A stretch of DNA of 64,000 bases from Flavobacteriales bacterium (GCA_016705545.1 JADIYA010000020.1:15413-79412); one strand, 5' to 3'; shown: positions 4,794 to 43,405, counted from the first letter of the stretch. The notes: generated by a model not told the origin, from the sequence alone. Made by a program: numbers and translations.

Positions 4794-4797
4794 GGGC

Positions 4798-19370: not shown

Positions 19371-19500
19371 GATGCTCTCCTTGATGTCCGTTATCCTTTA
19401 TTGCGATCAGACAGATTCCGTGCTGTTGCTGGCCATGGTTCGTCGCCCATTCGGTCGCTGCCTCGGGTGCGCAGGGAATGCCGCTGTGCGATGTTCACGA

Positions 19501-20658: not shown

Positions 20659-20679
20659 GGTCTTGGGTTGGTCGCGTTA

Positions 20680-23523: not shown

Positions 23524-23541
23524 ATACCACGAGCGTGGTAT
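23524..23541 (+). promoter_or_regulatory. palindrome copy a: ATACCAC-GAGC-GTGGTAT
   Basis: Perfect 7-bp inverted repeat with 4-nt spacer, 19 nt after the dsbA stop and 35 nt before the ATG of kinase 1. One of four copies. Confidence 0.55.
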
Positions 23542-23575
23542 TGTGAATCGGAAAGCGCACCTTCACTTTCGCCCG

Positions 23576-25660
23576 ATGCGGATTCCCGTCTTCATAGCCC
23601 TTCTGTCCATTGCAAACGCGCTCATGGGCCAGAACCTGGACAGTTTGCGCAGCGCCTGCGCGGATCGCAGCCTACCGGACTCTGCTCGTTTCGTGGCCTG
23701 CAACGAATTGATCTGGGAAGGCTACCTGTTCAACGCGCCCGATACGGCCTACCTGCTGGCCGAACGCATGGAGTCCGAGGCGCGCGGAAAAGGGAACGAT
23801 AGGTTCGTCGCAGTGGCCATCGATGCGAAGGCCGCCACTTGGTATGTCCGTGGACAATTCGAGTCCGCCCTTGATCTGTATCGGCAATCACTGGCCATTC
23901 ACCGGCGCCTCGGCGACAGAAACCGGCAGGCGGATGTGATGACCAACATGGCCGCCATGCATTCCTTCCTCGGCGCGAAGGACACGGCGCTGGTCCTCTA
24001 TGAACAAGGGCTCCACGTTCATGAGGAGCTCAAGGACTCCGCTTCCATCGCCAACGACCTCAACAGCATCGGCACCATCCACATGATGCGGGGAGACCAC
24101 GCGAGAGCGGTGGACCTGTATTCCCGTAGCCTGAAAATCCAAGAGGCGCTTCGCAATGATCGTGGCTTGGCCACCACCTTCATCAATATCGGCTCCGTGT
24201 ATATGGCTCAAGGCGACTACGGCAAGGCGCTGGAGCAATACGGCAGCGCCTCTGAGCTAGCCGAAAAACTGAATGATGCCCACCTCACCGCCAAGGCCTT
24301 GATCGAAATGGGCACCTGTCACCAGGAGCTCGGTGATCTTGAACGCGCTTTGCGCCACTTCAATCGCAGCCTGGACCTGCGCAACTCACTGGATGACCAG
24401 CATGGCATCGCGACCGCCTTGAACAGGATCGGCGAGGTCCAACGGAGGCAAGGGAGCACCGATGCGGCCATCGCCACTTTCCGGCGGAGCGCCGCGATCG
24501 CCGAGGAACAGGGTTCGCCGTTCAACGGAGGCACAGCATGGGCGGGCATCGGCAACGCGTTCCTGGATGAAAGCCGATATGTCGATGCATTGAATGCCGC
24601 GCAGACTGCGCTTCCGCTCGCTGAAGGAGCAGAGGAGCTATCGCTGCACCGCGATGTGCTCCACCTCACCTACCGTGCGCTGAAGGAGCTCGGTCGGGAG
24701 CGCGAGGCCCTTGCCGTGCTGGAGAAGAGCATCGTGCTCAGCGATAGCTTGATGCGCGAGGAGAACCAGCGAGAGATCCTTCGCCATGAGTACGCCTATG
24801 CTTACGAGCAGCAGGCGATGGCAGACAGCCTTCGCAACCAAGAGGAAAAACTCGCAACAGCTGCTGCCCACCGTGAGCGCCGCAATCTCTTGCTCGGCAG
24901 CGTGGCCATCCTCTTCGTGCTCGGCCTGGCGCTGTTGGGGCGGGTGCGCTACATGGCGCGGGCGAACAAAGCCATTCTGGCAGCCCAGTCCAAGCTGGTG
25001 ATCAGCGAAAGGCAACGCGAAGCAGAGCATGTGCGCAACCGGATCGCGAGCGACATCCACGACGACCTTGGAAGCGACCTGACGAAGCTGAGCCTGCTGG
25101 GCGATGAGATGAGGCGCACGGTAGCCGACCACGCCCATGCCACCGCGAAGCTCGCGAACCGCATCGTGGAGCTCTCACGCGATGCCACCACCGCGCTCAG
25201 CGACATCGTGTGGGCCGCCGATCCCCATCAGGATACCGCCCATGGGCTCATCACGCGGTGCAGCGCCTATACCCACCGCATGCTGGATGGAACGGGCCTG
25301 CAGCAGGACCTCCGGTTCGAGCACACCGGTCCCGACCTCATGCTCGACCCGGGCACCAAGCACGATGTGTTCCTGCTGCTGAAGGAACTGGTGAACAATG
25401 CCGTGAAGCATGCTGGCGCCAAACGCATCGACGTATCGCTCACTACCGATGCGCAGCGCTTCCAATTGGCCGTTGCCGATGATGGCCTTGGCTTCGACCA
25501 CGGCGCCGTGACGCCTGGCAACGGCCTGCGCTCCATCACCAGCCGCGCCAAGCGCATCGGTGCCGCCTTCATCGTGGACACCTCGCCAGGCAAAGGCACC
25601 CGGGTAAGGGTGGATGGTACTTGGGGCCAGGCATCATCGCCCGAGGGTCCTGCTGAATGA
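23576..25660 (+). CDS. TPR-repeat sensor histidine kinase (HisKA_3 / NarX-DesK type)
   Basis: Signal/TM MRIPVFIALLSIANALMGQ; about 9 TPR-like repeats (..ALDLYRQSLAIHRRLGD.., ..AVDLYSRSLKIQEAL..); TM LLLGSVAILFVLGLALLG; H-box RIASDIHDDLGSDLT; ATPase GNGLRSITSRAKRIGAAF. Confidence 0.88.
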   Translation: MRIPVFIALLSIANALMGQNLDSLRSACADRSLPDSARFVACNELIWEGYLFNAPDTAYLLAERMESEARGKGNDRFVAVAIDAKAATWYVRGQFESALDLYRQSLAIHRRLGDRNRQADVMTNMAAMHSFLGAKDTALVLYEQGLHVHEELKDSASIANDLNSIGTIHMMRGDHARAVDLYSRSLKIQEALRNDRGLATTFINIGSVYMAQGDYGKALEQYGSASELAEKLNDAHLTAKALIEMGTCHQELGDLERALRHFNRSLDLRNSLDDQHGIATALNRIGEVQRRQGSTDAAIATFRRSAAIAEEQGSPFNGGTAWAGIGNAFLDESRYVDALNAAQTALPLAEGAEELSLHRDVLHLTYRALKELGREREALAVLEKSIVLSDSLMREENQREILRHEYAYAYEQQAMADSLRNQEEKLATAAAHRERRNLLLGSVAILFVLGLALLGRVRYMARANKAILAAQSKLVISERQREAEHVRNRIASDIHDDLGSDLTKLSLLGDEMRRTVADHAHATAKLANRIVELSRDATTALSDIVWAADPHQDTAHGLITRCSAYTHRMLDGTGLQQDLRFEHTGPDLMLDPGTKHDVFLLLKELVNNAVKHAGAKRIDVSLTTDAQRFQLAVADDGLGFDHGAVTPGNGLRSITSRAKRIGAAFIVDTSPGKGTRVRVDGTWGQASSPEGPAE

Positions 25661-25706
25661 CTGCGGAGGAGATCGGAACCCCAGCACCAAACGCAATCGC
25701 TTCGTC

Positions 25707-27575
25707 ATGGCATATCTCCGAATCCTGCTGTTGGCCCTTGGCTGGGCGTCAATCACGGCAGCCCGCTCCCAGGCAAGCGAAATGGACAGCCTGCAACAAG
25801 TCCTGAAGTCGACCCCCATAACCGGGTCCTTGAAGGACACTACCCTCGCCCGATGGCACACGGAGCTTGCGGCCATGCTGAGCAAAGCAGGTGAACGCGA
25901 CAGCGCAAGCACGCACGCACAAGCGGCCATCGCCATGCTTGTTCCCTTGTCCAAGCGCTTCAATCAAGAACGAAAGGTCCATCATCTCCTTGCGGTCGCC
26001 AATCGGCACGCCGGAAGGCTCCACTACTTCGGGAGCCGATATGCCGAGAGCTTGGAGCATATGCAGGTGGCTCATCGTCATGCACTGCAAGCCATGGACA
26101 CCGTGGAACAGGGTCGCAGTCTTCTCTACATGGCGTATTGCTTCCGGGAGATGAGTGACACACAGCAAGCACTCGACTACACGCGCCGGGCCATCGCGGT
26201 GCTATCGAATACCTCTGCCCGGTCGGATCTTGGAACCTCAATCATGAATCTGGGCGGCATCTACTCCAATCAAGGCGTGCTCGACAGTGCGACGCATTAC
26301 TTCCGTCGGGCGCTGTACGTGTTCCAAGGCATCGAATCCCGATCACAGATCGCAGCCGCCATGCTGAACATGGCCGAAGCCTTCAATAACACCGGCCAAC
26401 ACGACTCCGCGCACTACTACCTGGATTTGGCCGCGCCATTCGCGCCGGCAATGAGCCCTCCGGCCCAAATTCGGTACAGCGGCATGATGGGCAGGTCGCT
26501 GGTCATGCGCAAGCGCTTCACGGAAGGATTGGCGAAGCTGGAGGAGGCTGAGGAGATGGCCGATGGCAATCCATCGGACCTCGCCGTGATCCTGCATGTG
26601 AAAGCGCTCGCCTATGCAGGCTTGCACGACATGCCCGCTGCGATGGCGGCATTGCGCGCGGGTGATGATGCGACGGTCGAGGACCTCGACCTCGAGAAAG
26701 TGCAGGAGGTGACTGCCTTGCGCATGACCTTCGAGCAGGAGCGCGAAGCGGCGCTCGCTCAGGAACGCATCGTCGAGGAGCAGGAGCGTCGTAAGCTCGC
26801 ATACGCCGCGTCGGCACTGCTGGGCATCGCCGTCGTTCTGCTCCTTGCGCTTGCCTGGATGCGCTCCCGATCGGCACGAGCCCTTCGTCTCAAGCATGAA
26901 GAGTTGCTCCGCGCCCAAGAGAAGCTCGTGCAAAGCGAGAAGCGGCGCGAAGCCGAGCAGGTGCGCACGCGGATCGCGCGCGATATCCACGACGACATGG
27001 GCGGTGAATTGACCAAGATCCGCCTGTTCGGAGGTGAGGCCATGCACCTCTTGTGGAGCGATCCCGCACAGGCGGGCGCCGCCGTGGAGCGCATGGCGCG
27101 CTCGGCGCAGCTGGCGAGCGATTCCCTGCGCGACATCGTATGGGCCACTGATCCGCATTATGACACCAAGCAAGGAACATTGGACCATGCGCGCGAACTG
27201 ATCCAGCGCATGCTGGAGGGCAGCGGTCCGCAATACACGATGGACCTGCGGCTCGATGGTCCCGATGGCCCGGTGGACACCGTTTGGAAGCAGAACCTCA
27301 TACGTATCCTCAAAGAAGCGCTGAACAATGCCCTGAAGCATGCGGAGGCTTCACGCATCGCGGTGTCAATAGCGCTTTCCGATGAGGGCTATCGTCTTTC
27401 CGTGCAAGATGATGGCCGCGGCCTTGACTCTTCCGGGTCGGGCGGCGGCAATGGCCTTCGGAACATGCGGGCCAGGGCCGCGAGCATGGGCGCGCGCTTC
27501 GATACGAGCACCCCGCCCGAAGGCGGATGCCGTATCGCGTTGCAAGGCACAGCGTTGGTTCCGGCATACCACTAA
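25707..27575 (+). CDS. second TPR-repeat sensor histidine kinase (HisKA_3 type)
   Basis: MAYLRILLLALGWASITAARSQA; TPR repeats; TM ASALLGIAVVLLLALAW; H-box RIARDIHDDMGGELT; ATPase GNGLRNMRARAASMGARF. Confidence 0.88.
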   Translation: MAYLRILLLALGWASITAARSQASEMDSLQQVLKSTPITGSLKDTTLARWHTELAAMLSKAGERDSASTHAQAAIAMLVPLSKRFNQERKVHHLLAVANRHAGRLHYFGSRYAESLEHMQVAHRHALQAMDTVEQGRSLLYMAYCFREMSDTQQALDYTRRAIAVLSNTSARSDLGTSIMNLGGIYSNQGVLDSATHYFRRALYVFQGIESRSQIAAAMLNMAEAFNNTGQHDSAHYYLDLAAPFAPAMSPPAQIRYSGMMGRSLVMRKRFTEGLAKLEEAEEMADGNPSDLAVILHVKALAYAGLHDMPAAMAALRAGDDATVEDLDLEKVQEVTALRMTFEQEREAALAQERIVEEQERRKLAYAASALLGIAVVLLLALAWMRSRSARALRLKHEELLRAQEKLVQSEKRREAEQVRTRIARDIHDDMGGELTKIRLFGGEAMHLLWSDPAQAGAAVERMARSAQLASDSLRDIVWATDPHYDTKQGTLDHARELIQRMLEGSGPQYTMDLRLDGPDGPVDTVWKQNLIRILKEALNNALKHAEASRIAVSIALSDEGYRLSVQDDGRGLDSSGSGGGNGLRNMRARAASMGARFDTSTPPEGGCRIALQGTALVPAYH

Positions 27576-27583
27576 TGTGGTAT
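27566..27583 (+). promoter_or_regulatory. palindrome copy b: ATACCAC-TAAT-GTGGTAT
   Basis: Perfect inverted repeat. The spacer contains the stop codon of kinase 2. It lies 173 nt upstream of the response-regulator ATG. Confidence 0.55.
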
Positions 27584-27755
27584 TCCACCGAAGGGAGGCG
27601 GCGTGTTGCTTCGGCGTCAACATATCCTTTCCTCCGCATGATGTTCTGTGCGATGGCGATCGCGCCTTCGCCCTGAAGGTCTTGGGCGCTTGCTGGTTCG
27701 GTGCCAACGGTTAGCTTAGGCAGCGATTCCGGATACGTGTGCCCGGACCTTGCGC

Positions 27756-28397
27756 ATGAGCGAATCGAACATCCGTGTCATCATCGTAGAGGACGACACT
27801 GAGATCCGAGATTTGATGCGGCGGTCCTTGGAGCGAGAGGCTGGGCTCCGTGTGGTTGGCTTGTTCGGCGATGCCGAAGGCTTCCTGGAGCGCTTCGAGG
27901 AGCTGGAGCCGGACGTGGTGCTGATGGATATCGGCTTGCCGGACATGAGCGGCATCGAGTGCGTGGCCAAGGCGAAGCCCATGCGCCCGCAGACCCAATT
28001 CCTCATGAGCACGGTCTTCGAGAATCCGGCATTCATCTTCCAGGCCTTGTGCGCCGGTGCAACGGGCTACCTGGTGAAGAATGCCGGACAGGAGCAATTG
28101 GCCATCGCCGTTCGCGAGCTGCACGAGGGCGGCTCCCCCATGTCATCGACCATCGCGCGGCTGGTGGTGGACTCCTTCCAGAACGGCGTGAAGACAAGGA
28201 TCCAGGACCACGCCCTCACGGATCGGGAAAAGGGCATCTTGGACCAATTGGCCCAAGGCCTGATGTACAAGGAGATCGCCGCCAAGACGGGCATCAGCAC
28301 CGAGACCGTGCGCAAGCACGTGCGCAACATCTACGAGAAGCTGCAGGTGGGCTCCCGCATGGAGGCCATCCGGAAGGTGTACCCCAACGGCTACTGA
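27756..28397 (+). CDS. NarL/LuxR-family response regulator
   Basis: Receiver IRVIIVEDD...DVVLMDIGLPDMSGIE...; LuxR HTH LTDREKGILDQLAQGLMYKEIAAKTGISTETVRKHVRNIYEKLQV. Confidence 0.92.
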   Translation: MSESNIRVIIVEDDTEIRDLMRRSLEREAGLRVVGLFGDAEGFLERFEELEPDVVLMDIGLPDMSGIECVAKAKPMRPQTQFLMSTVFENPAFIFQALCAGATGYLVKNAGQEQLAIAVRELHEGGSPMSSTIARLVVDSFQNGVKTRIQDHALTDREKGILDQLAQGLMYKEIAAKTGISTETVRKHVRNIYEKLQVGSRMEAIRKVYPNGY

Positions 28398-28404
28398 GTG
28401 TGCC

Positions 28405-28422
28405 CTACTACTGACGTGGTAT
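28405..28422 (+). promoter_or_regulatory. palindrome copy c: CTACTAC-TGAC-GTGGTAT
   Basis: 8 nt after the regulator stop and about 60 nt before the ATG of the barrel gene. The left arm differs from the consensus at two positions; one change is a C-to-T that keeps G-U pairing in RNA. Confidence 0.5.
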
Positions 28423-28483
28423 TTCCCGGGCAATCGTACGCCGGTTGCTTTGGCCGTCAGCATGCCCACGCATGCGATGGCAT

Positions 28484-30193
28484 ATGCTCAGCGTTCGACA
28501 AGCAGTCAATCGGCTCAAGGGGGCATTGCTCCTTTCCGGCTTGCTGGCACATGCCACGAGCCCGGCTCAGGACCTCGGGCAGATCGGCAACAGGAAGCCC
28601 TTCGCGCTGAGCGGCAGCCTCTCGCTGCAAGGGGGCCCTTACTTCTACAGCGGCGACGGCACGGCGCGCAACCTGCCCTACTTCTGGAACAGCACGGGCA
28701 CATTGACGTTGTCGTTGTGGGGCTGGCAGGCGCCATTCAGCTACTCGGTGGGCTCACAGGAGCGCTCGTGGACCCAGCCATTCAACCGATACGGCGTCAG
28801 CCCCTATTACAAATGGATCAAGCTGCATCTCGGCTTCCGCAGCATGCGCTTCAATCCTTACACCTTCGCCGGCCTTCAGTTCTACGGCGCAGGCGTGGAG
28901 CTACAGCCAAGGGGATTCCGCTTCTCTGCTTTTTACGGACGCTTCAACAAGCCGATCGCTCAGGACACCTTGGGGTCGATCATCCCCGTACCCGCATACC
29001 GGCGCATGGGCATGGGCGTGAAGATCGGGGTGGGCAGCCGCCGGACGTTCGTTGATCTGATGGTGTTCCGAGCTGTGGATGACACCGCCTCCATCCCGGA
29101 GGTCTCAGGCAACCGCAGCATCGCGCCGAAGGAGAACATCGCCGTGGGGCTCAGCGGACGCATCCCGCTGAGCAAGAAGCTCAGTTGGGACTTCGATGGC
29201 GGTGCCAGCGCCGTCACGGATGATGTGCGAGCGCCCGTGATGGAAGGCACCGATTTGCCTCGCTTCTCGCAAGGGATCTTCACCCCTCGGCTCACTACGC
29301 GACTGCTCTTCGCAGGCAACACCAGCCTTCGGTGGAACAGCCGATACATGGATATGCGCCTGCTCTACAAGGAAGTGGAGCCCAACTACCGCTCACTCGG
29401 CGCATTTTACCAGCAGACCGACATCCGCTCGGTGACCGTGGAGCCGACGGTGCGAATAATGAACGGCAAGCTGCGCGTGAGCGGGAGCTATGGCCTGCAG
29501 CAGGACAACATACGCGGCACCAAGGTGACCACTTCCGTGCGCCGCATCGGATCGGCCAGTGCCAACTGGAACCCGGGCCGAAGCTATGCCCTCGATGCAA
29601 GCTTCTCCAATTACGGCATCGCTCAAGAAGCTGGCCTTCGCGTGCTGAACGATACGTTCCGGGTCGCGCAAGTGAACCGCGTGTACTCCTTATCGCAGCG
29701 GGTGACCTTGATCAACAAGGTGCGGACCTGGACCGTGATGCTGACTGGCGGCTACCAGCAGCTGGTGGACCTGAACCCCTTCGGCACCTTCTCCAGCGCA
29801 GAGAACGAGGTGATGTACGCGAACCTCCACATCGGCCGCATCCGCATGCGCGATAACCTGATGGTGAACGGCGGCCTCAACGCCAACCGGAACAGCACCA
29901 TCGGCGGCACGTTCCTGCTCGTTGGTCCTTCGCTCGGCTTCTCCCGGCCATTGGCCAAGCAGAAGCTCATGGTCGCGCTCTCAGCCAGCTACAACAAAGC
30001 CCTGCAGGAAGGGCGCGATGCGGGCACCACGGTGAACGCCAACCACACGCTCCAATACCGCGTGGGCAAAGCGCACCGCTTGCAACTCACCATCAGCGCC
30101 CTGCAGAACAAGACCTCCTTCGTTGCCGCACGTGAATTCACCGAAGTACGGATCATGGGCGGCTATGTGCTCACCTTCCAAACAAAGTCCTGA
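28484..30193 (+). CDS. outer-membrane beta-barrel protein of unknown family (porin-like)
   Basis: ATG at 28484 gives MLSVRQAVNRLKGALLLSGLLAHATSPAQ. Many amphipathic strands rich in aromatic residues (FRFSAFYGRF, LRWNSRYMDMRLLYKEV, YALDASFSNYGI). The stop is 3 nt before the next ATG. Confidence 0.6.
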   Translation: MLSVRQAVNRLKGALLLSGLLAHATSPAQDLGQIGNRKPFALSGSLSLQGGPYFYSGDGTARNLPYFWNSTGTLTLSLWGWQAPFSYSVGSQERSWTQPFNRYGVSPYYKWIKLHLGFRSMRFNPYTFAGLQFYGAGVELQPRGFRFSAFYGRFNKPIAQDTLGSIIPVPAYRRMGMGVKIGVGSRRTFVDLMVFRAVDDTASIPEVSGNRSIAPKENIAVGLSGRIPLSKKLSWDFDGGASAVTDDVRAPVMEGTDLPRFSQGIFTPRLTTRLLFAGNTSLRWNSRYMDMRLLYKEVEPNYRSLGAFYQQTDIRSVTVEPTVRIMNGKLRVSGSYGLQQDNIRGTKVTTSVRRIGSASANWNPGRSYALDASFSNYGIAQEAGLRVLNDTFRVAQVNRVYSLSQRVTLINKVRTWTVMLTGGYQQLVDLNPFGTFSSAENEVMYANLHIGRIRMRDNLMVNGGLNANRNSTIGGTFLLVGPSLGFSRPLAKQKLMVALSASYNKALQEGRDAGTTVNANHTLQYRVGKAHRLQLTISALQNKTSFVAAREFTEVRIMGGYVLTFQTKS

Positions 30194-30196
30194 TCC

Positions 30197-33100
30197 ATGC
30201 TCATCCGGACCATCAAGCGATCACTGGCCAGCACAACGGCCCTGCTCCTCGGCCTCATCGCTGCTGCCCAGGGCAGTTATCCGATGACGATCAACCCCGT
30301 GATCCTGCCTCCCTATTCCCCGAGTATCGCCACCTACTTCAGCAGCCAGACCAACGTCGCCTTCATCATCAGCAACAGCACCTCGACCACATATCAGGTG
30401 TACTTGGCCGGGTCAGTGCGCAGTGTGCCCAACGAAGAGATCTCCGCCACGGTCGAGGGTGGGCAGCCATGGAGCGCGCCTCCTTTGATCGTAACGCCTG
30501 GCAGCAACTATTTCACTGGCGAGACCCTGCAGCCCATCCTGAATGCAATCAACGGGAATCCGGCCACCATCGTAGGGTTGGATGAGGAGCAGCTCCGACT
30601 CGGGGTTATCCCGGAGGGGGAATATGAATTGTGCCTAAAAGTGTACGACTATACGAGCCCGGAGACGCAGCTTTCGGAGCTCGGCTGCGTCGGCTTCTCC
30701 ATCCGGGAGGGTGAACCTCCTGTGCCGCTGACCCCTACTTGCTGGGACGACGGCACCGGCGAGATGGTGACGCCGCAATCGCCGCAGTTCATCAACTTCA
30801 ACTGGATCCTGCCGGGCGGCACGCCGCCGGGCGCCACCATCAGCTACGCATTCCGCCTGGTGCGCATCGACAATCCTTCCAACGCGCAAGCCGCCTTGGA
30901 AACCAGTACCGATGTGGTTTATGAAGACCTGGTGATGATGAACCAGCTCTCCTATACGCAGATGATGCCGGCCCTGGAGCCAGGCAGGATGTACGCGTGG
31001 TGGGTAAGGGCCATCCCATTCCCTGAATCGGCCATGGTGTTCCGCAACGACGGCTACATGCGGCCCTGTACGTTCACCTACGCAGAGCATTCGGGAACAG
31101 CCTTCTCCCTCACTTTCCCTCTTCAACAGGACACACTGCCATGGGACCTCATGCCGATCATGGCGCGATTCGAGCCGCATGCCCCGCCGGACGATGAGCG
31201 CACGACCGGGAAATTCTGGAGCAGGCTGGACCTGTACCAGGACGCCGCATTCCTGAATACGACTTTCCGGCACACCCAATCGAATGAGATCGATTGGGCT
31301 CAGGGCTACTACCGCTCACAGCTCGAGTTGCTGGATGAACCCCTGACTTCACAGAGGAGCAAGCACGTCACATCAACATCTACACGAACAACCCAACGCC
31401 GGATGGCCGTTTCAAGCGCGGTTCCAGCTACGCGCTCTCCGCCGATCTCCGCATCAAGGACCTCGCTGGCATGGATGCCCGATACGGTGACGTCGAGGGG
31501 ATCTTCGTTTCCGGCATGGGAAAGCCCAAGCCGCAATCACCGGCGCCCAATGCCGTGATCCCGAAGAATGGCGGGGACACGCTGGTGAGCGGTTTCGCTC
31601 CGATCAGGCTCCGCTTCCAAACTGCAGAGCCCCCCATGGCGCTCCGCCCGCCATTCCCCATCCGCATCCTTTATGGCTCGAATGCTCCAACGCAGACCCA
31701 AGGGCAAGCGCATGAGCGATGGCGGCTGGAGGTATCACGATCAGCGACGATGGCCAGTCCGATACTCACGAGCAGCGTGGAGCTAGGGCCCGTTCAGCTG
31801 CTCAACGATGCCTGTGATGACAACTGCTTCATCGATCAGTTCTACAAGCAGGATTCCGTGACCTTCACGCCGACAGACACGGGCACCTACTACTGGCGCG
31901 TCTCCTGGATGAAGGATCCGACCTCTGCGGTCGGTGAGACCTATCACGACGGACCCGTCCGCATGTTCCGCATCACGGGAAATCCAGCTCCCGCGACACC
32001 GGATGAAGAACCGGAGCGCCCGCGTGAATGCGTCACCATTTGCCGTGGCGCACGCACCCCGCTCGAGCAGCAGATACCAGCCAGCACTGTAATCGCAGGT
32101 GATACCGTGAAGGTCGGTCTGTTCGCCATGCGTGTATCGCAGATCACCTGGGCAGGCGGCAGTGCCAGTGGCGAGGGCGTCATCCCGGTTCCATTCATGA
32201 ATTGCCCCTTGCGCGTCTCCTTCACGAACGTGCGCATCAATGCGAGCAAAAACCTCTATGATGGTGAGGTCCTTGGATTGTACGATAACGAGAGCATCGT
32301 TCCGGCAGCGTGGCGCACAGGTGGCGGGCTCGCTGCGGGCTTCAGTCCGAGCGCGGTGGAGAACATCGACAACTACTTGAACGCAGCTGGCCGCCTCGTG
32401 GCACAGATGAGCATGAACTCGCCAATGGGCCTGCCCATCGGGATTGCCACGGATGTGCCAGGTGGCCGCTTCACGGTGGGGATCGTCGGTATGCGGTTCA
32501 CCGACACGGTGGCCGTGATGAACGCGATGATGAGCGTGCCCGTGCCCGAACTGGGCTTCAACTTCGGGCTGGGCGCCTCTGAGCAGGTATTCCACCCCGA
32601 TGGGGTGGGATGCCCTGAGCGTGACGCCCTGCTATACCTGGTTGACGATGTGCGCGTCGGAATCGGCGAGGATACGCTCGTGGTGCGCTCAACGCGCTTC
32701 GAACCGGGCAACTACATCAACGTGGTGGATTCGGGAACATTCGCCGCGTGGGATTGCCGGGGATTCCGTGCGCTGCAACTCGATGCGCAATGGCGATTCA
32801 GCAGCGATCATCTGCGCGAGGACATGCCCAATGGCGATTCCGGCCCGAGCAAGATCATCGCCTCATTGAAGACACGCACAGGGCGAGGCGGTTTCATGGG
32901 ACGTGTGGATTTCAACAAGCCCTTCCATATCGACGGAGCTGAAGGATGGGGCTTTGATGTACAAGAAGCCTGGATGGACCTGGCCAGCTACGCGAATCCT
33001 CCGGACATGAGCTTCTCCGCCGAGGTGGCCCAGCATGTGGGGCTCACGGATGGCTCTGGCGCCGCCGTGCCCGCTTGGCGCGGATTCTACCTGAAGCGCG

Positions 33101-36100
33101 CTATGCTTCGTCTGCCGGATCAAGTGAAACGCTTCGGGAGCACAGAGCGCATCGCGGCCTTGGTGGATGATCTTGCAATCACCGGCTCACAGGTCACCGG
33201 CAGCATCAAGCTCGCGAGCCTCATCCTGCCTGACGAGGGCAATCTGGGCGGATGGTCCTTCTCTGTGGACACGCTTCGATTGGACATCGTGATGAACTCG
33301 TTCCATCAGGCCGGCATGAAGGGCCGCATGCGCACCTCCGTGAGCCCGACATTGCTGGACTACTCTGCAATCTGGCAACAGAGCCTCTCCACCTCGGACC
33401 ACTGGATCCAATTCCTCATTCAACCACAGGACGATCTGAGCGTTCCGTTCCTCTTCGCGAACATCAATCTGGAAGAGACCAGCACGGTCGTGGCGACGCT
33501 CGGGCATGCGCAACTCGGCAGCTACGCGAAAGCGACGCTGAACGGGAGCATCAGCATCACCGCTCCAGCGGCGATACCGGTCTCGCTCAGCTTCGCCGAT
33601 ATCGAGTTCGAGAACCTTTGGTTCGGTACGCAAGCGCCTTACACCAACATCGATAGCAGCGCGGTGTTCTCACTCGCCAGCCCGCAGAAATGGATGGGCT
33701 CCGAAGAGGACGATGACATGCCAACCGTTCCGGGTGGAAGCGCGGGTGGCTTTCCCGTCAGCATCACGCGCGTCACGGGTGAACGCACCACCATCGATGG
33801 CAAGCCAGCCGCAGGCATCGCGTACGACATCAACCTGAAGCTCACCGGCACCACCAACATCTTCATCGCCACCACGCGCGTGGCCACGTTAGGCGTGCTC
33901 AACACGAGCAACATCCACCAATGGGGCGACCATGAGATGCGCCTCGACTCCATCGGTGTAACGGGCGGCACAGGAGCGGTGCACATCGAAGGCGGTCTGA
34001 AATGGTATCGCGACAGCCCCACCTATGGGAACGGCATCAAAGGGGGCTTGCGCGCGCGCTTCCTCAACGGCAAGGTTGACGTGGAAGCGAATGCGCAGTT
34101 CGGCACCACCGGCGGCAACAAGTATTGGTACATCGACGCCATGGCCGCGAAGCAGGGCGGCTTCAATCGCCCATCTGCATTCACGGTGTACGGCTTCGGC
34201 GGCGCCGCCTGGTACCACATGAGGCGAACCAGCGAGCCTCCCGGGGCGAATGCGATCATGGAGCAGGAGCTGGCGAACCTCCAAGACCCGAATTTCGAGC
34301 CAGGACTGACGGTCTCGGGCATGACGTTCGTGCCGGATGCGGGCATCGGCTTCGGCTTCAAGGCCACCGTGGTATTCGGCGATCCCAGCAGCGGCTACGC
34401 TTACAACGGCGACCTGAGCGCGGGCGCGCAGTTCGCTTCGGAGGGCGGTATCCAGAGCCTCTTCCTCGAAGGCGACCTCTTCGTGATGCACAAACGCGAA
34501 GAAGAGGGTCGAGTACCCATCCGCGGGCACATGGAAATGGAATACGATTTCGCCGAGGATGTATTCACGGCGCGCGCGGAGATGTTCGTGGACGTAGGCC
34601 CGAACGTGGTCTACGGCCTCGGCGCCAACAAATCGGCTGGAGAGCTGGAACTCTACATCGGCCCGGAGAACTGGCACCTCTACATCGGAACGCCGCAAGC
34701 GCGCGTGGGCCTGCAATTCGTGGATCTCTTCTCCGGCAACTTCTATTTCATGGTGGGCGATGACATCCCCGGCGTCCCGGACCCCCCCGCCGCCCTTTTG
34801 GATGTGATGCCCGCCAGCTACCGGTCGCGACCAGACATCAGCAACGCCAGCGGCATCGCCTTCGGCGCCAGCGTTCCATTCGCGTCGCGCGGCGACTTCC
34901 TCCTGTTCCGTTATGCGCTCAATGGCGATATCGGCTTCGATGTGCTCTTCCGCAGCTCCGAGGAGATGCAATGCGATGGCATCGATGATCCCGGCATCGG
35001 GCCTTTCTATGCGAATGGCCAGGTCTATGGCTACGTGAATGCCTCTGTGAGCCTCTATGTGGACGTCCGCTTCTTCTCCGGTGAGTACCACCTCTTCTCC
35101 ATCGGCGTGTCGGGGCTCTTTCAATGCGGCTTCGCCAATCCGACCTGGGCGCGCGGGTTCGCACACGGCAACTATAGCATCCTGCACGGCGCCATCAGCG
35201 GATCGGCCACGGTGCCCTTCTTCATCGGGGAGGCCTGCCTTCCGCCGGGCGGCGATGTCCTGGCCGGGCTGGATCCCATTGGCGACCTGGTGCCCCACCA
35301 CCTCGAGGGGCTGCTCCCGACATGCTCCAACGCCGCTGTTTGCGGTGTGGATTGCGGAGCAGAGCCGGAAGCCATCTTCAACATGAAAGCGGAGACTCCC
35401 TTCGAAGTGAAGGAGCAGCTATCCAACGGCAGCTTCAAGACGCACACGTTCAGGCTGCGTATCGAGACCTTCCGCTTGGCGAAGGCGAGCGGCAATGTCA
35501 CAGTTGCTTGCAGCAATCCTGAATTCAACAGCGCCAAGGACCGCATGAGCATGCGGCCCACCGCCTACCTCGCGCCCACCATTGAATACACCTGCACGCT
35601 GAAGGTGGCTGCGGAGAAGTTGGACGCGAATGGAATCTGGCAACCCGCGCGCAACACCGACGGCCAGGCCGTGACTTGGCAGAAGATCCACCGCTTCAAG
35701 ACCAATACCGGGATAGAGGAGCTCCGTCCAGAGGATGTTGATGTCAGCTATCCCTTCTACCGACAGCGCTACTTGCTCCAGGATGAATGCCGGAGCGGCA
35801 TCATCATCTGCAAGTCGGATATCAGCGATCAGCCGGTATTCAAGGCGCCTCCCGGCAGACGTCGTGTCTTCCGAGCGGTATTCATGCCCGTGACGGGGGG
35901 AACACCCGTTGAGCGGACGGCACAGGTGACGCATGGCGGACAGACACGCATCGCATTCGCTATACCACCGCTGGTGAACAGCCGCACATACGCGCTGCGC
36001 ATCGTCGCGCGCGACGAGATTGATCTGAGCACAATGGGCATCGCTGTTGGCAGCCCTGCCGCATCCGGGGGGGGCTCAACAAGCCCGTTCGCCGCACCCA

Positions 36101-37143
36101 TCACAAGCGGCGTCGCTGTGGCGAGCGCTGGCAGCACCAGCCTCGCGAATGGCATGGTGCTCCTCCGCAGGCAAGTGCTACAGGGCTATACGCTGCGCGC
36201 TGATGAGCGAATCACCTACATCTATCACTTCCGCACCTCCGGATTCAGCACGCTCTCGGCCAAGCTGGCGTCACTTACGAATGCAGCGACGACGCGGACT
36301 TCCTCGGTCACGAATCCTGTGCAGGAATACCTGCTGCCCGCCTTCAGCGGTGAGCGGTTCGATGCGTACGACCTCGTTGGCTTCACCTACGGTTTGCAAG
36401 GCAGCATCACGCAGCCTCCCTTGATCACCGCTGTCGATGCGAATACGGACACCTGGATGAAGAACTGGGCGAAGCCCTTGATCTACGACTATTATGCAGC
36501 GATCAAAGCAGCGAATTGCAGCGATGAGGACCTTGAGCGCAGCAGGACAGTGATCAGCAACGGGTTCTTCACGCGCACCATCATCAGCGACTCGCCGGAT
36601 AACATCGGCATGCCTCCGTACCGCACGGTGGCCATCAACCCCTACTACACGCCTGATCCGCAGCTCGCCACTAGTGAGACAGCGCCATCTCCGCTGCCAA
36701 TCGGCATTGGTGTGAACTCCAGCACAGCTGGCGGCACAGTAATTCCTACCCCGCTATACAAGGTAGGAACAGGGAAGCAGGTTGCGATGGATTACGCACG
36801 CATGCAGACCATTACCACGGATGTGATCGCTACCTGCGGGCCCGTAAATCCCGTCGTTGATGGACAAGGAGAGGATATGGGTGGCATGCCCGAACCCTTG
36901 CGCAGCAAGGTGCAAGCGTTCCAAGCCTCGAGTTACAAGCTGCTCTATAAGGGCAACTACGGATTGAAACTCACCTTCCGGCTTCCTCTGGCCTGTGGTG
37001 CATTCGTAGGCGAACCCGGCACCGTAGCGCCGACCGGCACCATTGGCACGCTCATCTACAATCACCCGACCGGGCCCAACCCGCCGATCGGCATCTCTCC
37101 GACTGGGCCACTAGGACCTGGTTCGGGCACCATACAATATTGA
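30197..37143 (+). CDS. giant secreted protein (about 2315 aa) of unknown function; frame broken at the C run near 31340
   Basis: Signal peptide MLIRTIKRSLASTTALLLGLIAAAQG. ORF 30197-31558 reads sensibly up to ...YYRSQLELLDEP. The frame of ORF 31471-37143 is open from 31339 (TPDFTEEQARHINIYTNNPTPDGRFKRGSSYALSADLRIKDLAGMDARYG...), so a 1-nt indel at GAACCCCTG joins them. No T9SS C-terminal domain is visible. Confidence 0.7.
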
Positions 37144-37145
37144 CC

Positions 37146-39203
37146 ATGGTCCGCAACTCGATCATTCTCATAGCAGCCGCGCTGCTGGCAACCAGTGCGC
37201 AAGGCCAGAGCTTCCATACTATCGCCCGCAATACGGCCGATTCCGTAGTGCTGCGCTGGGCGCCAGCTAGCGTTGAAGCATGGCTCATGCACAACACGTT
37301 CGGCTACCGCGTGGAGCGCCTTGAGATCACCCCGACGACCTCGCGGCGCTCGAAGGCCGAACGAATCGGGCCTGACAGCATCCGCCCGCTCCCGCTCGAT
37401 GGCTTCATCGCGCGATTCCCCAAGGATCATCCTTCTGCCGGGGCCATGGCGCAGATGCTCCATGGGAATGGCGAACAGCTGCCCTCCGATGCGAACAACA
37501 TCATGGGCGCAGCGATAACGGCCGATGGGCAGCGCATGCGTTGGTCCGTCTGCCTCCTGCTCTCGGACCTGGATCCCGCAATGGCCCAAGCCGCCGGCCT
37601 GCGTTGCGTGGATCGCACGGCGAAACCTGGTGCCACCTACTTGTACCGTGTGATCGCCCTGCATCCTCAGCATGGCGACACCGCAATCGTTGGCGTGAAC
37701 CGCGCCATGGTCGAGCCGCTGCCGGACGGTCCGGAACTGAGGGCCGAGGAACTGGAGCGCCGCGTGCAGATCGGCTGGCTCATGCCCTCAGGGCTCGCGG
37801 CCTTCAGCGGATACTGGGTGGAGCGATCGCCCGACGGTCGAACGTGGAGCCGCCTGCATCGCACGCCATTCGTGCCGTCTCGCGCCGAGGGCGACAAAAG
37901 CGATTTCACCTGGTTCAACGACACTTCCCTCACGCGCAACTATCAGGCGCATCATTACCGGGTGCTGGGCATCACGCCCTTCGGCGAAGTGAGCGGATCA
38001 GGACCCACGACCATCGCCATGGGCAGGGACCGTACACCGCCAACAGCTCCGGTTCTGAAGGGCGCGAAGGACGAAAAGGGCAGGCTCGTGGTGCATTGGG
38101 AACAATCCCAGAGCAGCGCTGATCTGCGCGGGTACCGTGTTGAAAAGGCCGTTGAAACCAATGGCGCTTACTGGTCATTGCACACCGATCTCCTTCCAAT
38201 AGACGCGCGGAGCTTCACGGATACATCGCGCTTCTTGGCCGGCGGCAACCACTACCGGGTGGCGGCGCTGGACACGGCAGGCAATATCGCCTATTCCATG
38301 AGCGGCTATGGCTTCCTCATGGACAGCATCGCACCCGCACCGCCTATTGGCCTGATCGGGTCAATCGATACCAGTGGCGTGGTCACTGTTCGTTGGCGGT
38401 TGGGCAAGGAACCGGACATCCTCGGCTACCGCGTGTTCTTCGCGAATGCCACGGACCATGAGTTCAACAACCAGAGCCCCGAACCCTTCGCGGACACTGT
38501 CTTCACCGACACGCTGCAGATGAACACGCTCACCAAGCGCATCCATTACAAGGTGGTAGCCGTGGACCGCAACTACAACCACAGCCCGATGAGCACCATG
38601 CTCACCCTCACTCGGCCCGACCTGATCCCGCCCGTAGCACCGGTGTTCAAGAACTATGTGGTGAGCGACACCGCCGTGGTGATCCACTTCATCCCCAGCA
38701 GCAGCAAGGATGTCGCGCGACACCGACTCATGCGCAAATCACCGGGTGAAGCATCGTGGAAAGAGGTGCTCCTGCTTACCGTGTCAGACAAGCAACGCGT
38801 GTGGACCGACCGCGATGTGCGCGGACCGGCCCACTACAGCTATACCATGGTGGCGGTGGACAGCGCGGGCAATGCTTCAACAGAAGCGCTTCCGCTCGCC
38901 GTGCGCGTGCATGAGCGCCTGAAGCGTGCGGAGGTCACCGGAGTGAAGGCGTTGCGAATCGACGAACGCACCGTGCAGGTGAGTTGGAGCCAGCCGCCCG
39001 GTACCGTTCACCATTATCTGGTGCTTCGCGCCAAGGACGGTGGCGCGGCCATGCCCGTAGGCTCGGCGCCCGGCAGCTCATCATCGTTCGCAGATATCCG
39101 ACTTGCGGGCAAAGGCACGTACACCTACACCGTGCAGGCCGTGTACGACGATGGAGCGGCGTCCGCGGTATCGATCCGAAGCGCGCCTTTGGATATGCGC
39201 TGA
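37146..39203 (+). CDS. secreted multi-FN3-like domain protein
   Basis: Signal peptide MVRNSIILIAAALLATSAQGQ. At least six repeats of the pattern ...V.L.W......I.GYRV.R........W......P......F.D.......Y.Y.V.A.D..GN.S. The ATG is 2 nt after the stop of the giant gene. Confidence 0.7.
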   Translation: MVRNSIILIAAALLATSAQGQSFHTIARNTADSVVLRWAPASVEAWLMHNTFGYRVERLEITPTTSRRSKAERIGPDSIRPLPLDGFIARFPKDHPSAGAMAQMLHGNGEQLPSDANNIMGAAITADGQRMRWSVCLLLSDLDPAMAQAAGLRCVDRTAKPGATYLYRVIALHPQHGDTAIVGVNRAMVEPLPDGPELRAEELERRVQIGWLMPSGLAAFSGYWVERSPDGRTWSRLHRTPFVPSRAEGDKSDFTWFNDTSLTRNYQAHHYRVLGITPFGEVSGSGPTTIAMGRDRTPPTAPVLKGAKDEKGRLVVHWEQSQSSADLRGYRVEKAVETNGAYWSLHTDLLPIDARSFTDTSRFLAGGNHYRVAALDTAGNIAYSMSGYGFLMDSIAPAPPIGLIGSIDTSGVVTVRWRLGKEPDILGYRVFFANATDHEFNNQSPEPFADTVFTDTLQMNTLTKRIHYKVVAVDRNYNHSPMSTMLTLTRPDLIPPVAPVFKNYVVSDTAVVIHFIPSSSKDVARHRLMRKSPGEASWKEVLLLTVSDKQRVWTDRDVRGPAHYSYTMVAVDSAGNASTEALPLAVRVHERLKRAEVTGVKALRIDERTVQVSWSQPPGTVHHYLVLRAKDGGAAMPVGSAPGSSSSFADIRLAGKGTYTYTVQAVYDDGAASAVSIRSAPLDMR

Positions 39204-39210
39204 GCGCGGC

Positions 39211-39228
39211 ATACTACCAACGTGGTAT
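39211..39228 (+). promoter_or_regulatory. palindrome copy d: ATACTAC-CAAC-GTGGTAT
   Basis: 8 nt after the FN3 gene stop and 56 nt before the next ATG. There is one C-to-T change in the left arm (G-U compatible). Confidence 0.5.
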
Positions 39229-39283
39229 TGATGACCGCGAGCGAGCGGGGCTACTTCGCTCGCTCCAAACCAACACCCCTGCC

Positions 39284-39754
39284 ATGCGCATCGTGCTTCT
39301 CCTCATTCCGCTTTCCGTACCACTTCTGGCCCGAACGCAAGACGTGGTGGCCACCGGCGGCGGGTACCACACCGGACCCGGCACTGCCATCTCCTACACC
39401 ATCGGCGAGCCGGTGATCGCCACGGTGGGCAATGCCAGCACCACACTCACGCAGGGCTTCCAGCAGCCGTGGGCTGACATCAACACGATAGTGGATGACG
39501 CCGCAACGGATGGACCAGGCATCAACGTGTATCCGAACCCTGTGCGCCACATCCTGCACATCGCCATGGAAGGCGCGCCCGATGGGCACCACTATGTGCT
39601 GCACGATGCCGAGGGCAGGCAAGTCACCGATGGCCGCATCGCATGCACCATCACCGACCTCGACATGGAACCCACGCGAGCGGCAGCTACTACCCGCGCG
39701 TGCTGGGCCCGAACGACAACAGTCCGCGCCTTCAAAATCTTCGTCACCCACTAA
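39284..39754 (+). CDS. small secreted protein with T9SS C-terminal sorting domain (probably with local indels)
   Basis: MRIVLLLIPLSVPLLARTQ; module ATGGGYHTGPGTAISYTIGEPV...LTQGFQQPW; CTD start INVYPNPVRHILHIAM and end ..VRAFKIFVTH. The segment 39665-39720 reads like a CTD (ASGSYYPRVLGPNDNS) only in another frame, so two compensating indels are suspected. Confidence 0.55.
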   Translation: MRIVLLLIPLSVPLLARTQDVVATGGGYHTGPGTAISYTIGEPVIATVGNASTTLTQGFQQPWADINTIVDDAATDGPGINVYPNPVRHILHIAMEGAPDGHHYVLHDAEGRQVTDGRIACTITDLDMEPTRAAATTRACWARTTTVRAFKIFVTH

Positions 39755-39757
39755 CCC

Positions 39758-42700
39758 ATGAAAAAGACACTCCTCCTCCTCACGGCCCTCGCGCTCTCCC
39801 TTGGCGCGCTCGCCCAAGTGCCGCAGCGCATTAGCTACCAAGCCATCCTGCGCGATGCCGGCGGTGCCATTCAGCCCAACACCAGCGCTACGCTCGGCCT
39901 CGCCGTGCTGCAAGGCAGCGCCGGTGGCCCTGTGGTGTACAATGAGAACCATGCGGTGACCACCAACGGCTTCGGCCTGGCCAACGTGCCGCTCGGCGGT
40001 GGCACCGTGGTGAGCGGCAACTTCGCTCAGATCGATTGGAGCGCAGGCCCCTACTTCGTGCGCACCAGCGTGAACGGTACGCCGCTCGGCACCTCACAAT
40101 TGCTGAGCGTGCCATACGCGCTGTTTGCAGAACAGAGCAACACGCCTGGTCCGCAGGGCGAACAAGGCGAACCCGGGCCGCAAGGACCTCCCGGCGCCGA
40201 CGGAACCGGCGTGACGATCCTTGGCTCGCTCACCAACGTGAACCAATTGCCTACCGGTGGAGAACCCGGTGATGCCTACTTGGTGAATGGCAGCCTCTAC
40301 GTTTGGAGCGAGACCACGAACGACTGGGAGAACGTCGGTTCCATTCAGGGTCCAGCCGGTGCAACCGGTCCGGCAGGTGCTGATGGGCGCACGATCCTGA
40401 ACGGCGCGAGCAATCCCGCAGCGGGTACAGGTTCGAATGGCGACTTCTACATCAACACCGCCACCAACACGCTTTTCGGCCCGAAGACCGGCGGCGTATG
40501 GGGAAGCGGCACATCCTTGATTGGACCAATCGGCCCCCAAGGCCTTACTGGACCACAGGGCATTGCAGGGCCCGCAGGCGCAACAGGCAGCACCGGGCCA
40601 CAAGGTGCGCAAGGTGTACAGGGGCCTGTGGGTGCTACAGGGCCGCAAGGTCCTGCTGGTGCAGATGGAACAGGCGTGACGATCCTTGGAACACTGCTCA
40701 ATGAAGGACAGCTCCCGGGAACAGGGTGATCCGGGCGACGCCTACCTGATCAATGGCAGCCTCTATGTGTGGAGCGCGACCACGAATGATTGGGAGAATG
40801 TCGGGTCCATACAAGGCCCTGCCGGGCCACAAGGCCCGCAAGGAGTGGCCGGCCCCACAGGTGCAACGGGACCGCAGGGGGCTACTGGTCCGCAAGGCGC
40901 AACAGGAGCAACAGGACCGCAAGGTGTGCCGGGCACCAACGGAACCAACGGGATCAACGGAACGAACGGTACCAATGGCGCGGATGGCCGCACCGTGCTG
41001 AATGGAACAAGCAACCCAACCGGTGGCACGGGTGCCAACGGCGACTTCTACATCAACACCAGCACGAGCAACATCTTCGGGCCGAAGACCGCCGGCGTTT
41101 GGGGTGCTGGCGTACCGTTGATCGGACCGCAAGGTCCGCAAGGGGCAACAGGTGCTACAGGCGCAACCGGGCCGCAGGGCACTCAAGGCCCGCAAGGTGT
41201 GCCGGGCACCAACGGAACCAACGGGATCAACGGAACGAACGGTACCAATGGCGCGGATGGCCGCACCGTGCTGAATGGAACAAGCAACCCAACCGGTGGC
41301 ACGGGTGCCAACGGCGACTTCTACATCAACACCAGCACGAGCAACATCTTCGGGCCAAAGACCGCCGGCGTTTGGGGCGCAGGCGTACCACTGATCGGAC
41401 CTCAAGGTCCGCAAGGGGCAACAGGCGCCACCGGGCCGCAGGGCACGCAAGGTCCACAAGGTGTACCAGGCACCAACGGAACGAACGGTACGAATGGCAC
41501 CAATGGTGCGGACGGCCGCACCGTGCTCAGCGGCGCAGGCAACCCTACAGCGGGCATCGGCGTGAATGGCGACTTCTACATCAACACCAGCACGAGCAAC
41601 ATCTTCGGGCCGAAGACCGCCGGCGTTTGGGGCGCAGGCGTACCGCTGATCGGACCACAAGGGGCAACTGGCGCCACGGGTGCGACTGGCGCAACAGGCC
41701 CACAAGGCGTTCCTGGAACCAATGGCACGAACGGGACCAACGGTCTCAACGGCAAGACCGTATTGAATGGCGCTGCGGATCCGACTGGCGGAACGGGCAC
41801 TGATGGGGATTTCTACATCAACACCACCACGGACTTCATTTTCGGGCCGAAGACCGCTGGGGCGTGGGGAGCGGGCACTTCATTGGTAGGACCGCAAGGA
41901 CCTGCAGGTGGTGGAAGCGGTTGGCTGCTCACGGGTAATGCTGGGATCAACCCTGCCACGAACTTCTTGGGCACCACCGATGCACAACCACTGAATTTCC
42001 GGATGAATAACATCACATCCGGAACCATCAATAACATAACACGCAACACAGCACTGGGTTCCTTCACACTCGACGCCTCGCCAACCGGGAACTGGAATTC
42101 CGCTATCGGATACGAAGCGCTCCGCTTCCTTACCACCGGAGCCTTCAACGCAGCCATTGGCGCACGTGCCCTGAAAGCGAATACAACCGGATATGATAAT
42201 TCTGCGATGGGCACTGAGGCGATGACCTCGAATACCACTGGCTACCGGAATGCCGCCTTCGGCGCGGCTTCTCTCTATCTGAACACGACGGGATTCTACA
42301 ATACTGCGGCTGGTGTGTATGCGCTATTCGAGAACTCCTCTGGCTTCTCCAACGTCGCTCCGGCGTCTCTGCCATGAAGAACAACCAGACCCGTTCGCAC
42401 AACGCAGCGATCGGCGATAGCGCCTTCACCAATGACAATGGCCTTCCTCCGTTGGTCGGTGAGACGCCCCCGCCGACCGGCTATTACAACACGGCGGTTG
42501 GGAGCAAGGCTATGCAAGGCAACGTCAGCGGTTACTACAATTCATCGCTGGGCTATCGAAGCTTGTACACGAACGACAACGGTTTCAGCAACACGGGTAT
42601 CGGGTCATTCGCCCTGACACTTTCGAGCACCGGTTATGGCAACTCTGCGATTGGCAGCGGGTCACTGCAATTCAATACCGCAGGAAATGAGAACTCGGCT

Positions 42701-43336: not shown

Positions 43337-43350
43337 TCAGTCATCCATCC

Positions 43351-43391
43351 GGGCGGGGATCGAAGGCATGTTTATCCTTCGGTGCCCGCCC
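43351..43391 (+). terminator. imperfect hairpin after the collagen-like gene
   Basis: GGGCGGG...CGAAGG / CCTTCG...CCCGCCC nested stems, 15 nt after the stop at 43336. Confidence 0.35.
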
Positions 43392-43405
43392 GCCTCGTTC
43401 CAACT

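Follow-up and report, generated by a model that had tools for sequence, protein, structure and literature searches.

A 64,000-nucleotide (nt) stretch of a Flavobacteriales genome (GCA_016705545.1, JADIYA010000020.1:15413-79412), which we call the window and which was analysed at its full length, contains four copies of a palindrome of the general form (A/C)TAC(C/T)AC-N4-GTGGTAT-T. They stand at the unit boundaries of an island that encodes two sensor kinases, a LuxR-type response regulator and a set of surface and secretion proteins. We consider it likely that these palindromes are operators of the regulator (27756-28397), each belonging to a sigma-A-type promoter, and that the four promoters form an autoregulated regulon under a class-II-type activator. 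An initial annotation, made from the sequence alone, had proposed such an operator and autoregulated regulon as one of two readings, and it is strongly supported by comparative genomics, by the phasing of the palindrome to the promoter -7 box, and by a correlation with the recognition helix of the regulator.

The four palindromes of the window

A scan of the window for ATACYAC-N4-GTGGTAT returned only four sites with at most one mismatch, starting at 23524, 27566, 28405 and 39211, and none in 100 shuffles that preserved dinucleotide composition. Allowing up to three mismatches added three weak matches (22066, 38368 and 56027), against 2.3 expected. All four copies were thus recovered where the initial annotation had placed them, and each is followed directly by T, as it had noted. 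The GC content of the window is 62%. The candidate operators are as follows.

23524-23541, plus strand: candidate operator 1, ATACCAC-GAGC-GTGGTAT, before kinase 1 (motif scan, orthologous sites)
27566-27583, plus strand: candidate operator 2, ATACCAC-TAAT-GTGGTAT, before the regulator gene (motif scan)
28405-28422, plus strand: candidate operator 3, CTACTAC-TGAC-GTGGTAT, one mismatch, before the barrel operon (motif scan, orthologous sites)
39211-39228, plus strand: candidate operator 4, ATACTAC-CAAC-GTGGTAT, before the gene of a small type IX secretion system (T9SS)-sorted protein (motif scan, orthologous sites)

Copies 1, 3 and 4 are intergenic, and the spacer of copy 2 holds the TAA stop codon of kinase 2. 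The copies do lie just past plus-strand stop codons and ahead of plus-strand start codons, as had been described: copy 1 begins 18 nt after the upstream stop, copy 2 overlaps it, and copies 3 and 4 each begin 7 nt after it, while the next start codon follows at 34, 172, 49 and 55 nt, respectively. Contrary to the earlier proposal, the 4-nt spacer is not free to vary: A occupies its third position in three of the four copies of the window and in 33 of the 34 sites aligned from relatives.

Conservation of the sites in related genomes

In place of a whole-genome count of the motif, we used loci anchored on the regulator gene, control loci from other phyla, and a metagenome scan. For the first of these, the surroundings of the regulator gene were compared in relatives, with one genome per species and loci labelled L002 and so on. 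The best match to the regulator among GTDB representatives is 72% identical. About 20 loci from Bacteroidota, with regulators that share 57-72% identity with that of the window, carry the palindrome, and in some 20 regulator-anchored loci the regulator gene is immediately followed by an orthologous site. About 55 loci from other phyla, with regulators about 50% identical, contained no palindrome with a score of 12 or more in 0.69 Mb.

All four positions seen in the window are conserved. Sites precede kinase genes in L002, L003, L004, L005, L007, L009, L021 and L085, and the high-GC Flavobacteriales loci (L002-L009, L021) keep the order of kinase(s), regulator, site, barrel, giant protein and fibronectin type III (FN3) protein. 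The closest relative, L085, has a regulator 82% identical to that of the window and carries sites before kinase 1, at the junction of the kinase 2 stop codon and the regulator gene, and before the barrel gene. It repeats the window arrangement in which operator 2 lies across the stop codon of kinase 2; this equivalent of operator 2 is at L085 9831 and is absent in L086. Equivalents of operator 4, between the FN3 gene and the small gene, are found in four loci that were collected by homology to the small T9SS protein (L081 9933, L082 9935, L083 9925 and L084 7261), and also in L095 and L108. In low-GC relatives from the Bacteroidia, the site after the regulator precedes homologues of the window's own collagen-like fibre with an S74 domain. 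The regulon that had been proposed, comprising kinases, regulator, barrel-giant-FN3 unit and collagen-like unit, is therefore one that comparison recovers independently in other genomes.

The sites are tied to the genes downstream of them and not to those upstream. Among 40 sites, the next ATG follows at 31-74 nt, with the exception of window copy 2 (172 nt), while the distance from the upstream stop codon ranges from -15 to +181 nt, and about ten of the 40 stand at operon heads with no upstream open reading frame (ORF) on the plus strand.

Phasing of the palindrome to the promoter

When 34 related sites, chosen by the palindrome alone and drawn from genomes of 35-63% GC, were aligned, a second information peak of the form T-A-n-T-T-T-T-G was seen at alignment columns 41-48, with T45 in 32 and T46 in 33 of the sites. 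A -7/-33 promoter consensus has been described for the Bacteroidota (PMC2483708), and in Flavobacterium psychrophilum the sigma-A -7 box TAnnTTTG spans positions -12 to -5 (PMC9723704). Of these features, the -7 box is present at the sites, and the -33 element TTTG is only partial. In the 34-site alignment the -7 box begins exactly 23 nt past the right arm, and the gap between palindrome and box is 22 nt in 36 of 40 sites and 23 nt in the remainder.

Because the -7 box spans -12 to -5 and stands at this fixed offset, the centre of the palindrome falls at about -43.5 from the predicted transcription start site (TSS). The promoter-proximal arm therefore adjoins or overlaps position -33, and the conserved T(T/G) that follows the right arm coincides with a partial -33 element, TT(G/T). 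Class II activators bind with their centre at about -41.5 to -44.5 and in fixed phase; the value here, measured from a predicted TSS, is -43.5. Compared with ordinary Bacteroidota sigma-A promoters, with which they share the -7 box, these promoters differ in having a partial -33 element, which lies within the operator, and in the degenerate form of the boxes at high GC (TTCG for TTTG). In the window the boxes are the following.

23564-23571, plus strand: -7-like box of copy 1, CACTTTCG; predicted TSS 23576
27606-27613, plus strand: -7-like box of copy 2, TTGCTTCG; predicted TSS about 27618, with a 138-nt leader
28445-28452, plus strand: -7 box of copy 3, TTGCTTTG; predicted TSS about 28457
39251-39258, plus strand: -7-like box of copy 4, CTACTTCG, [GC]TACTTCG in orthologues; predicted TSS about 39263

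A scan for sigma-70-type promoters called nothing at the four sites, as is expected given that Bacteroidota promoters differ from that type, and the -7 box was used instead.

The TSS predicted for copy 1, at 23576, is the A of the kinase 1 ATG, and a leaderless mRNA is therefore predicted. A gap of exactly 34 nt between palindrome and ATG is also found before kinase or T9SS-protein genes at L007 7947, L014 6403, L019 1193 and L020 6415, and mRNAs made from such sites would likewise be leaderless. Leaderless mRNAs are rare in flavobacteria (about 5%).

Copy 2 is similar to the barrel promoter over the stretch that begins with the palindrome and ends with the -7 box. Closer to the regulator gene lies another conserved element.

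27712-27719, plus strand: conserved box TAGCTTAG, 36 nt before the regulator ATG; kept in the window, L085 and L086

Its flanks, GCTTGCTGG.TCGGTGCCAAC.GTTAGCTTAGGC, are also conserved in these three loci, of which L086 is the one that lacks operator 2. The box may represent a basal promoter (P2) for the regulator, judging from its conservation and position.

The phasing recurs in metagenomes when no regulator gene is used as an anchor. The pattern TACYAC-NNAN-GTGGTATT-N25-TT matched at least 120 loci, and a good -7 box stands at the exact position in 68 of the 120 matches listed, against a background of 9.3% (p about 2e-38). In at least 20 of the listed matches, a homologous regulator gene ends about 15-80 nt upstream on the same strand. 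The downstream genes among the matches listed encode regulators, T9SS proteins, fibres, cysK, metY and DUF4856 proteins; with such diverse contexts, the operator type is widespread in the Bacteroidota and not private to the island.

The regulator and its probable recognition sequence

The signalling genes of the island are as follows.

23576-25660, plus strand: sensor kinase 1, with signal peptide, TPR sensor, HisKA_3 and HATPase_c (Pfam)
25614-27575, plus strand: sensor kinase 2, with TPR, HisKA_3 and HATPase_c; the TAA stop falls within the operator 2 spacer (Pfam)
27756-28397, plus strand: response regulator, REC plus GerE/LuxR helix-turn-helix, recognition helix ETVRKHVRNIYEKL (Pfam)

The regulator is the only one of LuxR type in the window, and the NarL, VraR and MadR models match it over its full length. 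The core of the palindrome in the four window copies and some 40 related sites is a 7-2-7 inverted repeat, TACCACn-NN-nGTGGTA, within the operator consensus nTAC(C/T)AC-TnAn-GTGGTATT. Like sites of the NarL kind, it consists of inverted heptamers 2 bp apart with an outer TAC, and it is linked to a REC+GerE regulator in about 20 regulator-anchored and at least 20 motif-anchored loci. Our consensus TACCACTAAAGTGGTA (TACCACT-AA-AGTGGTA) differs from the engineered high-affinity NarL site TACCCCTAAAGGGGTA (TACCCCT-AA-AGGGGTA) by one base per half-site.

Escherichia coli NarL and NarP provide the nearest parallel: their operators, too, are inverted heptamers 2 bp apart with outer TAC...GTA, bound by a REC-GerE dimer, as is proposed here, and centred in the -40s at activated promoters (PMC4549865); 7-2-7 sites of NarL lie at -40 to -49 at napF and at -38 to -47 at yeaR (PMC4549865). 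The two systems differ at heptamer position 5, which is A here and C or T in NarL, and in the recognition helix, which is TVRKHVR here and TVKVHVK in NarL. They also differ in promoter type, the sites here being joined to Bacteroidota sigma-A promoters (-7 box TAnnTTTG) instead of -10/-35 promoters. Lastly, the kinases here have periplasmic TPR sensors and no nitrate sensing, and the targets are surface and secretion proteins.

The recognition helix separates regulators that have a site from those that do not. All regulators with the helix ETVRKHV(R/Y) have a site within 400 nt downstream, with a score of at least 14.5 and mostly of 19-31, and this pairing holds even where overall regulator identity is as low as 45-48%. 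Regulators of similar identity that carry ETVHTYI, TVKVHI, TVRVHI or TVRTHI have no site within 400 nt downstream. Among the 40 sites, changes in the two arms are mutually independent, pairing being equal to the shuffled expectation. If a dimer reads the half-sites independently, no compensatory change between arms is to be expected.

A paralogous system with the helix TVRVHI was seen in L018, where a peptide promoter carries TACCATG-CG-CATGGTA (6809-6824) 22 nt before CATTTTTG. This is a single case in which helix and operator have possibly varied together.

Several characterised systems are related to this one. The only characterised Bacteroidota system with a kinase resembling kinase 1 is FimS/FimR of Porphyromonas gingivalis, in which a TPR sensor kinase and a regulator activate surface-appendage genes by promoter binding (PMC1974823). 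HK_Porph_FimS is the best NCBIfam match of kinase 1 (E = 5e-29, 101 bits), kinase 2 reaching 53 bits; the equivalog cut-off, at 600, is far higher than 101 bits, so that kinase 1 is not a FimS orthologue. The targets also differ, being fimbriae in the one system and the barrel/giant protein and collagen-like fibres in the other, and the literature found on FimS/FimR defines no consensus site for FimR. The closest solved homologues of the regulator are VraR/LiaR, DesR and DevR, REC-GerE proteins that align over the full length with E = 1e-20 to 1e-26. They control autoregulated operons with palindromic sites. They have other recognition sequences and sensors, and belong to Firmicutes and Actinobacteria.

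Evidence against the operator reading, and its alternatives

Several points weigh against operators of this regulator. The -7 boxes at the high-GC copies (CACTTTCG, TTGCTTCG and CTACTTCG) are degenerate, copy 2 would give rise to an unusually long leader of 138 nt, and the TSS positions are predicted from the -7 box alone. The correlation of helix with motif is partly confounded by phylogeny. Palindrome and box also occur before cysK and metY on contigs with no regulator nearby, and other regulators must therefore share the specificity. Several genomes have more than one kinase-regulator cluster of this clade; L082, for example, has a second cluster, and the paralogues could cross-bind. Finally, a site that overlaps -33 and is centred at -43.5 could in principle serve repression.

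These last observations also speak for a rival reading, in which the same DNA element is bound by another protein (a LuxR-type paralogue or a dimeric factor of unrelated kind) or the local regulator is a repressor that occludes -33. Identical palindromes with their box precede not only cysK and metY but also DUF4856 and other genes that have no LuxR-type regulator in the vicinity. We nevertheless think such an arrangement improbable for the island, as the sites are tightly coupled to the 3' end of regulator genes with one type of recognition helix. In about 36 of 40 sites the spacing to the -7 box does not vary by a single base pair, as is usual for activators in contact with RNA polymerase, and the sites stand in place of a consensus -33 TTTG.

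The initial annotation slightly favoured a different explanation, namely that the palindrome is a conserved RNA hairpin at plus-strand 3' ends, acting as a terminator, stabiliser or processing site. All four copies do lie 0-18 nt past a plus-strand stop, and a stem of 7 bp with a 4-nt loop can form (local fold z-scores of -1.1 to -2.7, both strands having been folded). The left-arm C-to-T changes of two window copies retain G-U pairs, which had been taken to favour RNA, but this does not survive once related copies are counted. Counted over 40 sites, 82.5% of the helix cells are paired, compared with 83.0% after column shuffling, and 452 of 500 shuffles equal or exceed the real value; covariation scores 0.071 (0.083 in shuffles), and two-sided changes occur at one pair against 1.1 expected. 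The outermost pair is unpaired in 26 of the 40 sites, and plus-strand pairing is broken where the left arm is unchanged and the right arm reads GTGTTAT or GTAGTAT. A terminator scan calls none of the copies, and no U-tract follows them, the tails being TGTGAATC, TCCACCGA, TTCCCGGG and TGATGACC. About ten orthologous sites have no co-oriented gene upstream, and an RNA element offers no explanation for the fixed 22 nt to the -7 box. The RNA reading is thus largely refuted, and we give it very little credence.

Two narrower forms of it were rejected. No copy has the GC-rich stem followed by a U-tract of an intrinsic (rho-independent) terminator, and the initial annotation was correct in saying that the motif is not a generic terminator. 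A conserved structured RNA is not supported, as there is neither an excess of compensatory changes in the 40 sites nor any Rfam match in the window.

Least probable of all is that the palindromes are recombination or mobile-element boundaries, of a repetitive extragenic palindromic (REP), miniature inverted-repeat transposable element (MITE) or cassette-like kind, that delimit shuffled modules: copies do stand at every module boundary, and module order does vary in relatives (the regulator is followed by a barrel operon or by a fibre gene, and L087 has its small-T9SS module inverted), but the repeated sequence stops at the 19-nt motif and promoter, with none in the flanks (a repeat search gave only the 30-nt motif family), no recombinase or transposase is nearby, positions are stable across genomes with regulators 57-82% identical, and promoter function fully explains the phasing to the -7 box and start codons. 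A dispersed repeat of REP/MITE type was likewise rejected, inter-copy similarity being confined to motif and box, with 31-74 nt to the start codon except at copy 2.

Proposed circuit and its significance

Taking the palindromes as operators, we infer binding by the adjacent regulator, and activation rather than repression. In the circuit that we propose, the two TPR sensor kinases would phosphorylate the regulator, whose dimer would then bind the 7-2-7 site at -43.5 and recruit RNA polymerase, in a class II manner, to promoters with a -7 box and a partial -33 element. The units switched on would be the two kinase genes, the regulator's own gene, the barrel/giant/FN3 operon, and the operon of the T9SS-sorted protein and collagen-like fibre (with or without the cyclase). 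The predicted outcome is positive autoregulation on top of a basal promoter, together with induction of two surface/secretion operons.

In environmental Bacteroidota, few two-component systems are more abundant than pairs of a TPR kinase and a LuxR-type regulator, and to our knowledge these pairs are almost wholly unstudied. Literature searches returned nothing on this motif or system in the Bacteroidota. Most likely it is a gene switch of a familiar type, in a group of bacteria for which it had not been described, and no new mechanism need be assumed. What is gained is an operator consensus, a promoter geometry (with the -7 box 22 nt away and the centre near -43.5), a conserved regulon, and, in the helix ETVRKHV, a candidate specificity determinant. 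Taken together, these allow regulons to be predicted from sequence alone in uncultured Flavobacteriales. The system would also illustrate how a NarL-type class II mechanism can be fitted to the unusual Bacteroidota promoter.

Proposed target genes of the island

The gene labels of the initial annotation agree with Pfam, which finds DsbA, two TPR+HisKA_3 kinases, REC+GerE, FN3, collagen-like and cyclase proteins. The proposed targets are as follows.

28472-39203, plus strand: proposed target operon 1, barrel, giant protein and FN3 protein (synteny)
28472-30193, plus strand: large outer-membrane beta-barrel (structure model)
30197-37143, plus strand: giant protein of about 2300 aa, frameshifted in the window (synteny)
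37140-39203, plus strand: FN3 protein (Pfam)
39284-45244, plus strand: proposed target operon 2, small T9SS gene, fibre and probably cyclase
39284-39754, plus strand: small T9SS-sorted protein with a T9SS sorting domain (domain search)
39758-43336, plus strand: collagen-like trimeric fibre with an S74 chaperone domain, frameshifted in the window (domain search, homologues)
43382-45244, plus strand: TPR-guanylate/adenylate cyclase (Pfam)

Pfam and NCBIfam contain no family for the barrel or the giant protein, nor for small 53-aa ORFs that were also searched. The structure model of the barrel (predicted local distance difference test, pLDDT, 82.6) has about 26-28 strands, and the folds that match it best are those of the FimD usher and MtrB. 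These matches are weak (TM-score 0.4-0.5), and only the fold class is established. The barrel gene is split in the relative locus L085.

Two of the target genes are interrupted in the window. The ORFs 30197-31558 and 31471-37143 correspond to one gene for a protein of about 2300 aa in relatives, and the ORFs 39758-40729, 40686-42377 and 42374-43336 to one collagen+S74 fibre gene (about 1060-1290 aa). The frame changes are at about 31350-31370, 40725 and 42359, and could be either assembly frameshifts or the mark of pseudogenes or phase variation.

The cyclase, in which a TPR sensor is fused to a cyclase domain, lies 45 nt past the fibre gene here and follows the fibre gene in L084; going by this gap and the kept adjacency, it is probably part of target operon 2. 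In its TPR part it is similar to the sensors of the kinases and of FimS, and the protein may be a second output of the same signal. An orphan REC-LytTR regulator is encoded just past it on the minus strand (45290-46039).

Similar target genes are found under another type of regulator in Pedobacter schmidteae, a cultured species (L208, LS999839.1). Positions 4515-21281 hold the same collagen-like gene and an operon of barrel, 2494-aa giant protein and FN3 protein, adjoining a LytTR regulator and a TPR kinase (HisKA). We rejected this species as a model for the operator, because its regulator is of LytTR type and the locus has no TACCAC motif.

Other occurrences of the probable operator

An additional copy with a -7-like box is present at L081 13773, downstream of the fibre gene and 70 nt upstream of a gene for an AraC-family regulator. 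It may reflect a regulatory cascade that is missing from the window.

Near-identical palindromes with a -7 box, and with no LuxR-type regulator nearby, were found at L159 10997, L164, L170 and L176 (cysK), at L110 (metY-like), and at L118 and L204. The promoters of cysteine synthase and of the Cys/Met pyridoxal phosphate enzymes read ATACCACAAACGTGGTATTG ... TACCTTTG or TTACCACATATGTGGTATTT ... TATCTTTG. This pattern suggests that sulfur amino-acid genes have a trans-acting regulator whose specificity is the same.

An ORF of 49-53 aa, MRRKKMPHFIRLxRLALKSVWYALTIPNDPYHEK..., with no Pfam family, recurs on five soil metagenome contigs that are unrelated to each other (L103 3556-3717, L139, L156, L158 and L188), where it begins 47-49 nt past an operator.

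In a number of relatives, the upstream operator copy precedes one to three tandem ORFs of about 55 aa with a hydrophobic N-terminus and an invariant C-terminus, RGGWDxN (L013 4859-5433 and 6980-8008; L015 5751-6108; L016 1241-2495; L017 6299-7938; L018 6897-8130; L124 2843-5848). They are followed by a ThiF-family protein, for which the best solved match is MccB (E = 4e-33, full length). The arrangement looks like a microcin-C-like (MccA/MccB-type) or peptide-signal module under the same two-component family; the window itself has no such module of short ORFs and ThiF. A broader scheme can be drawn from this, which we hold to be speculative and rather unlikely: the operator would be shared by a large Bacteroidota family of self-amplifying circuits, made of TPR kinases and ETVRKHV LuxR regulators, that in many relatives drive RGGWDxN peptides and an MccB-like ThiF protein, so that peptide autoinduction would control T9SS proteins and collagen fibres. 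Were this the case, the circuit would be a microcin-C-like or quorum-signal-like loop, and the island of the window, having no peptide genes, would be a derived form that may respond to peptides produced elsewhere.

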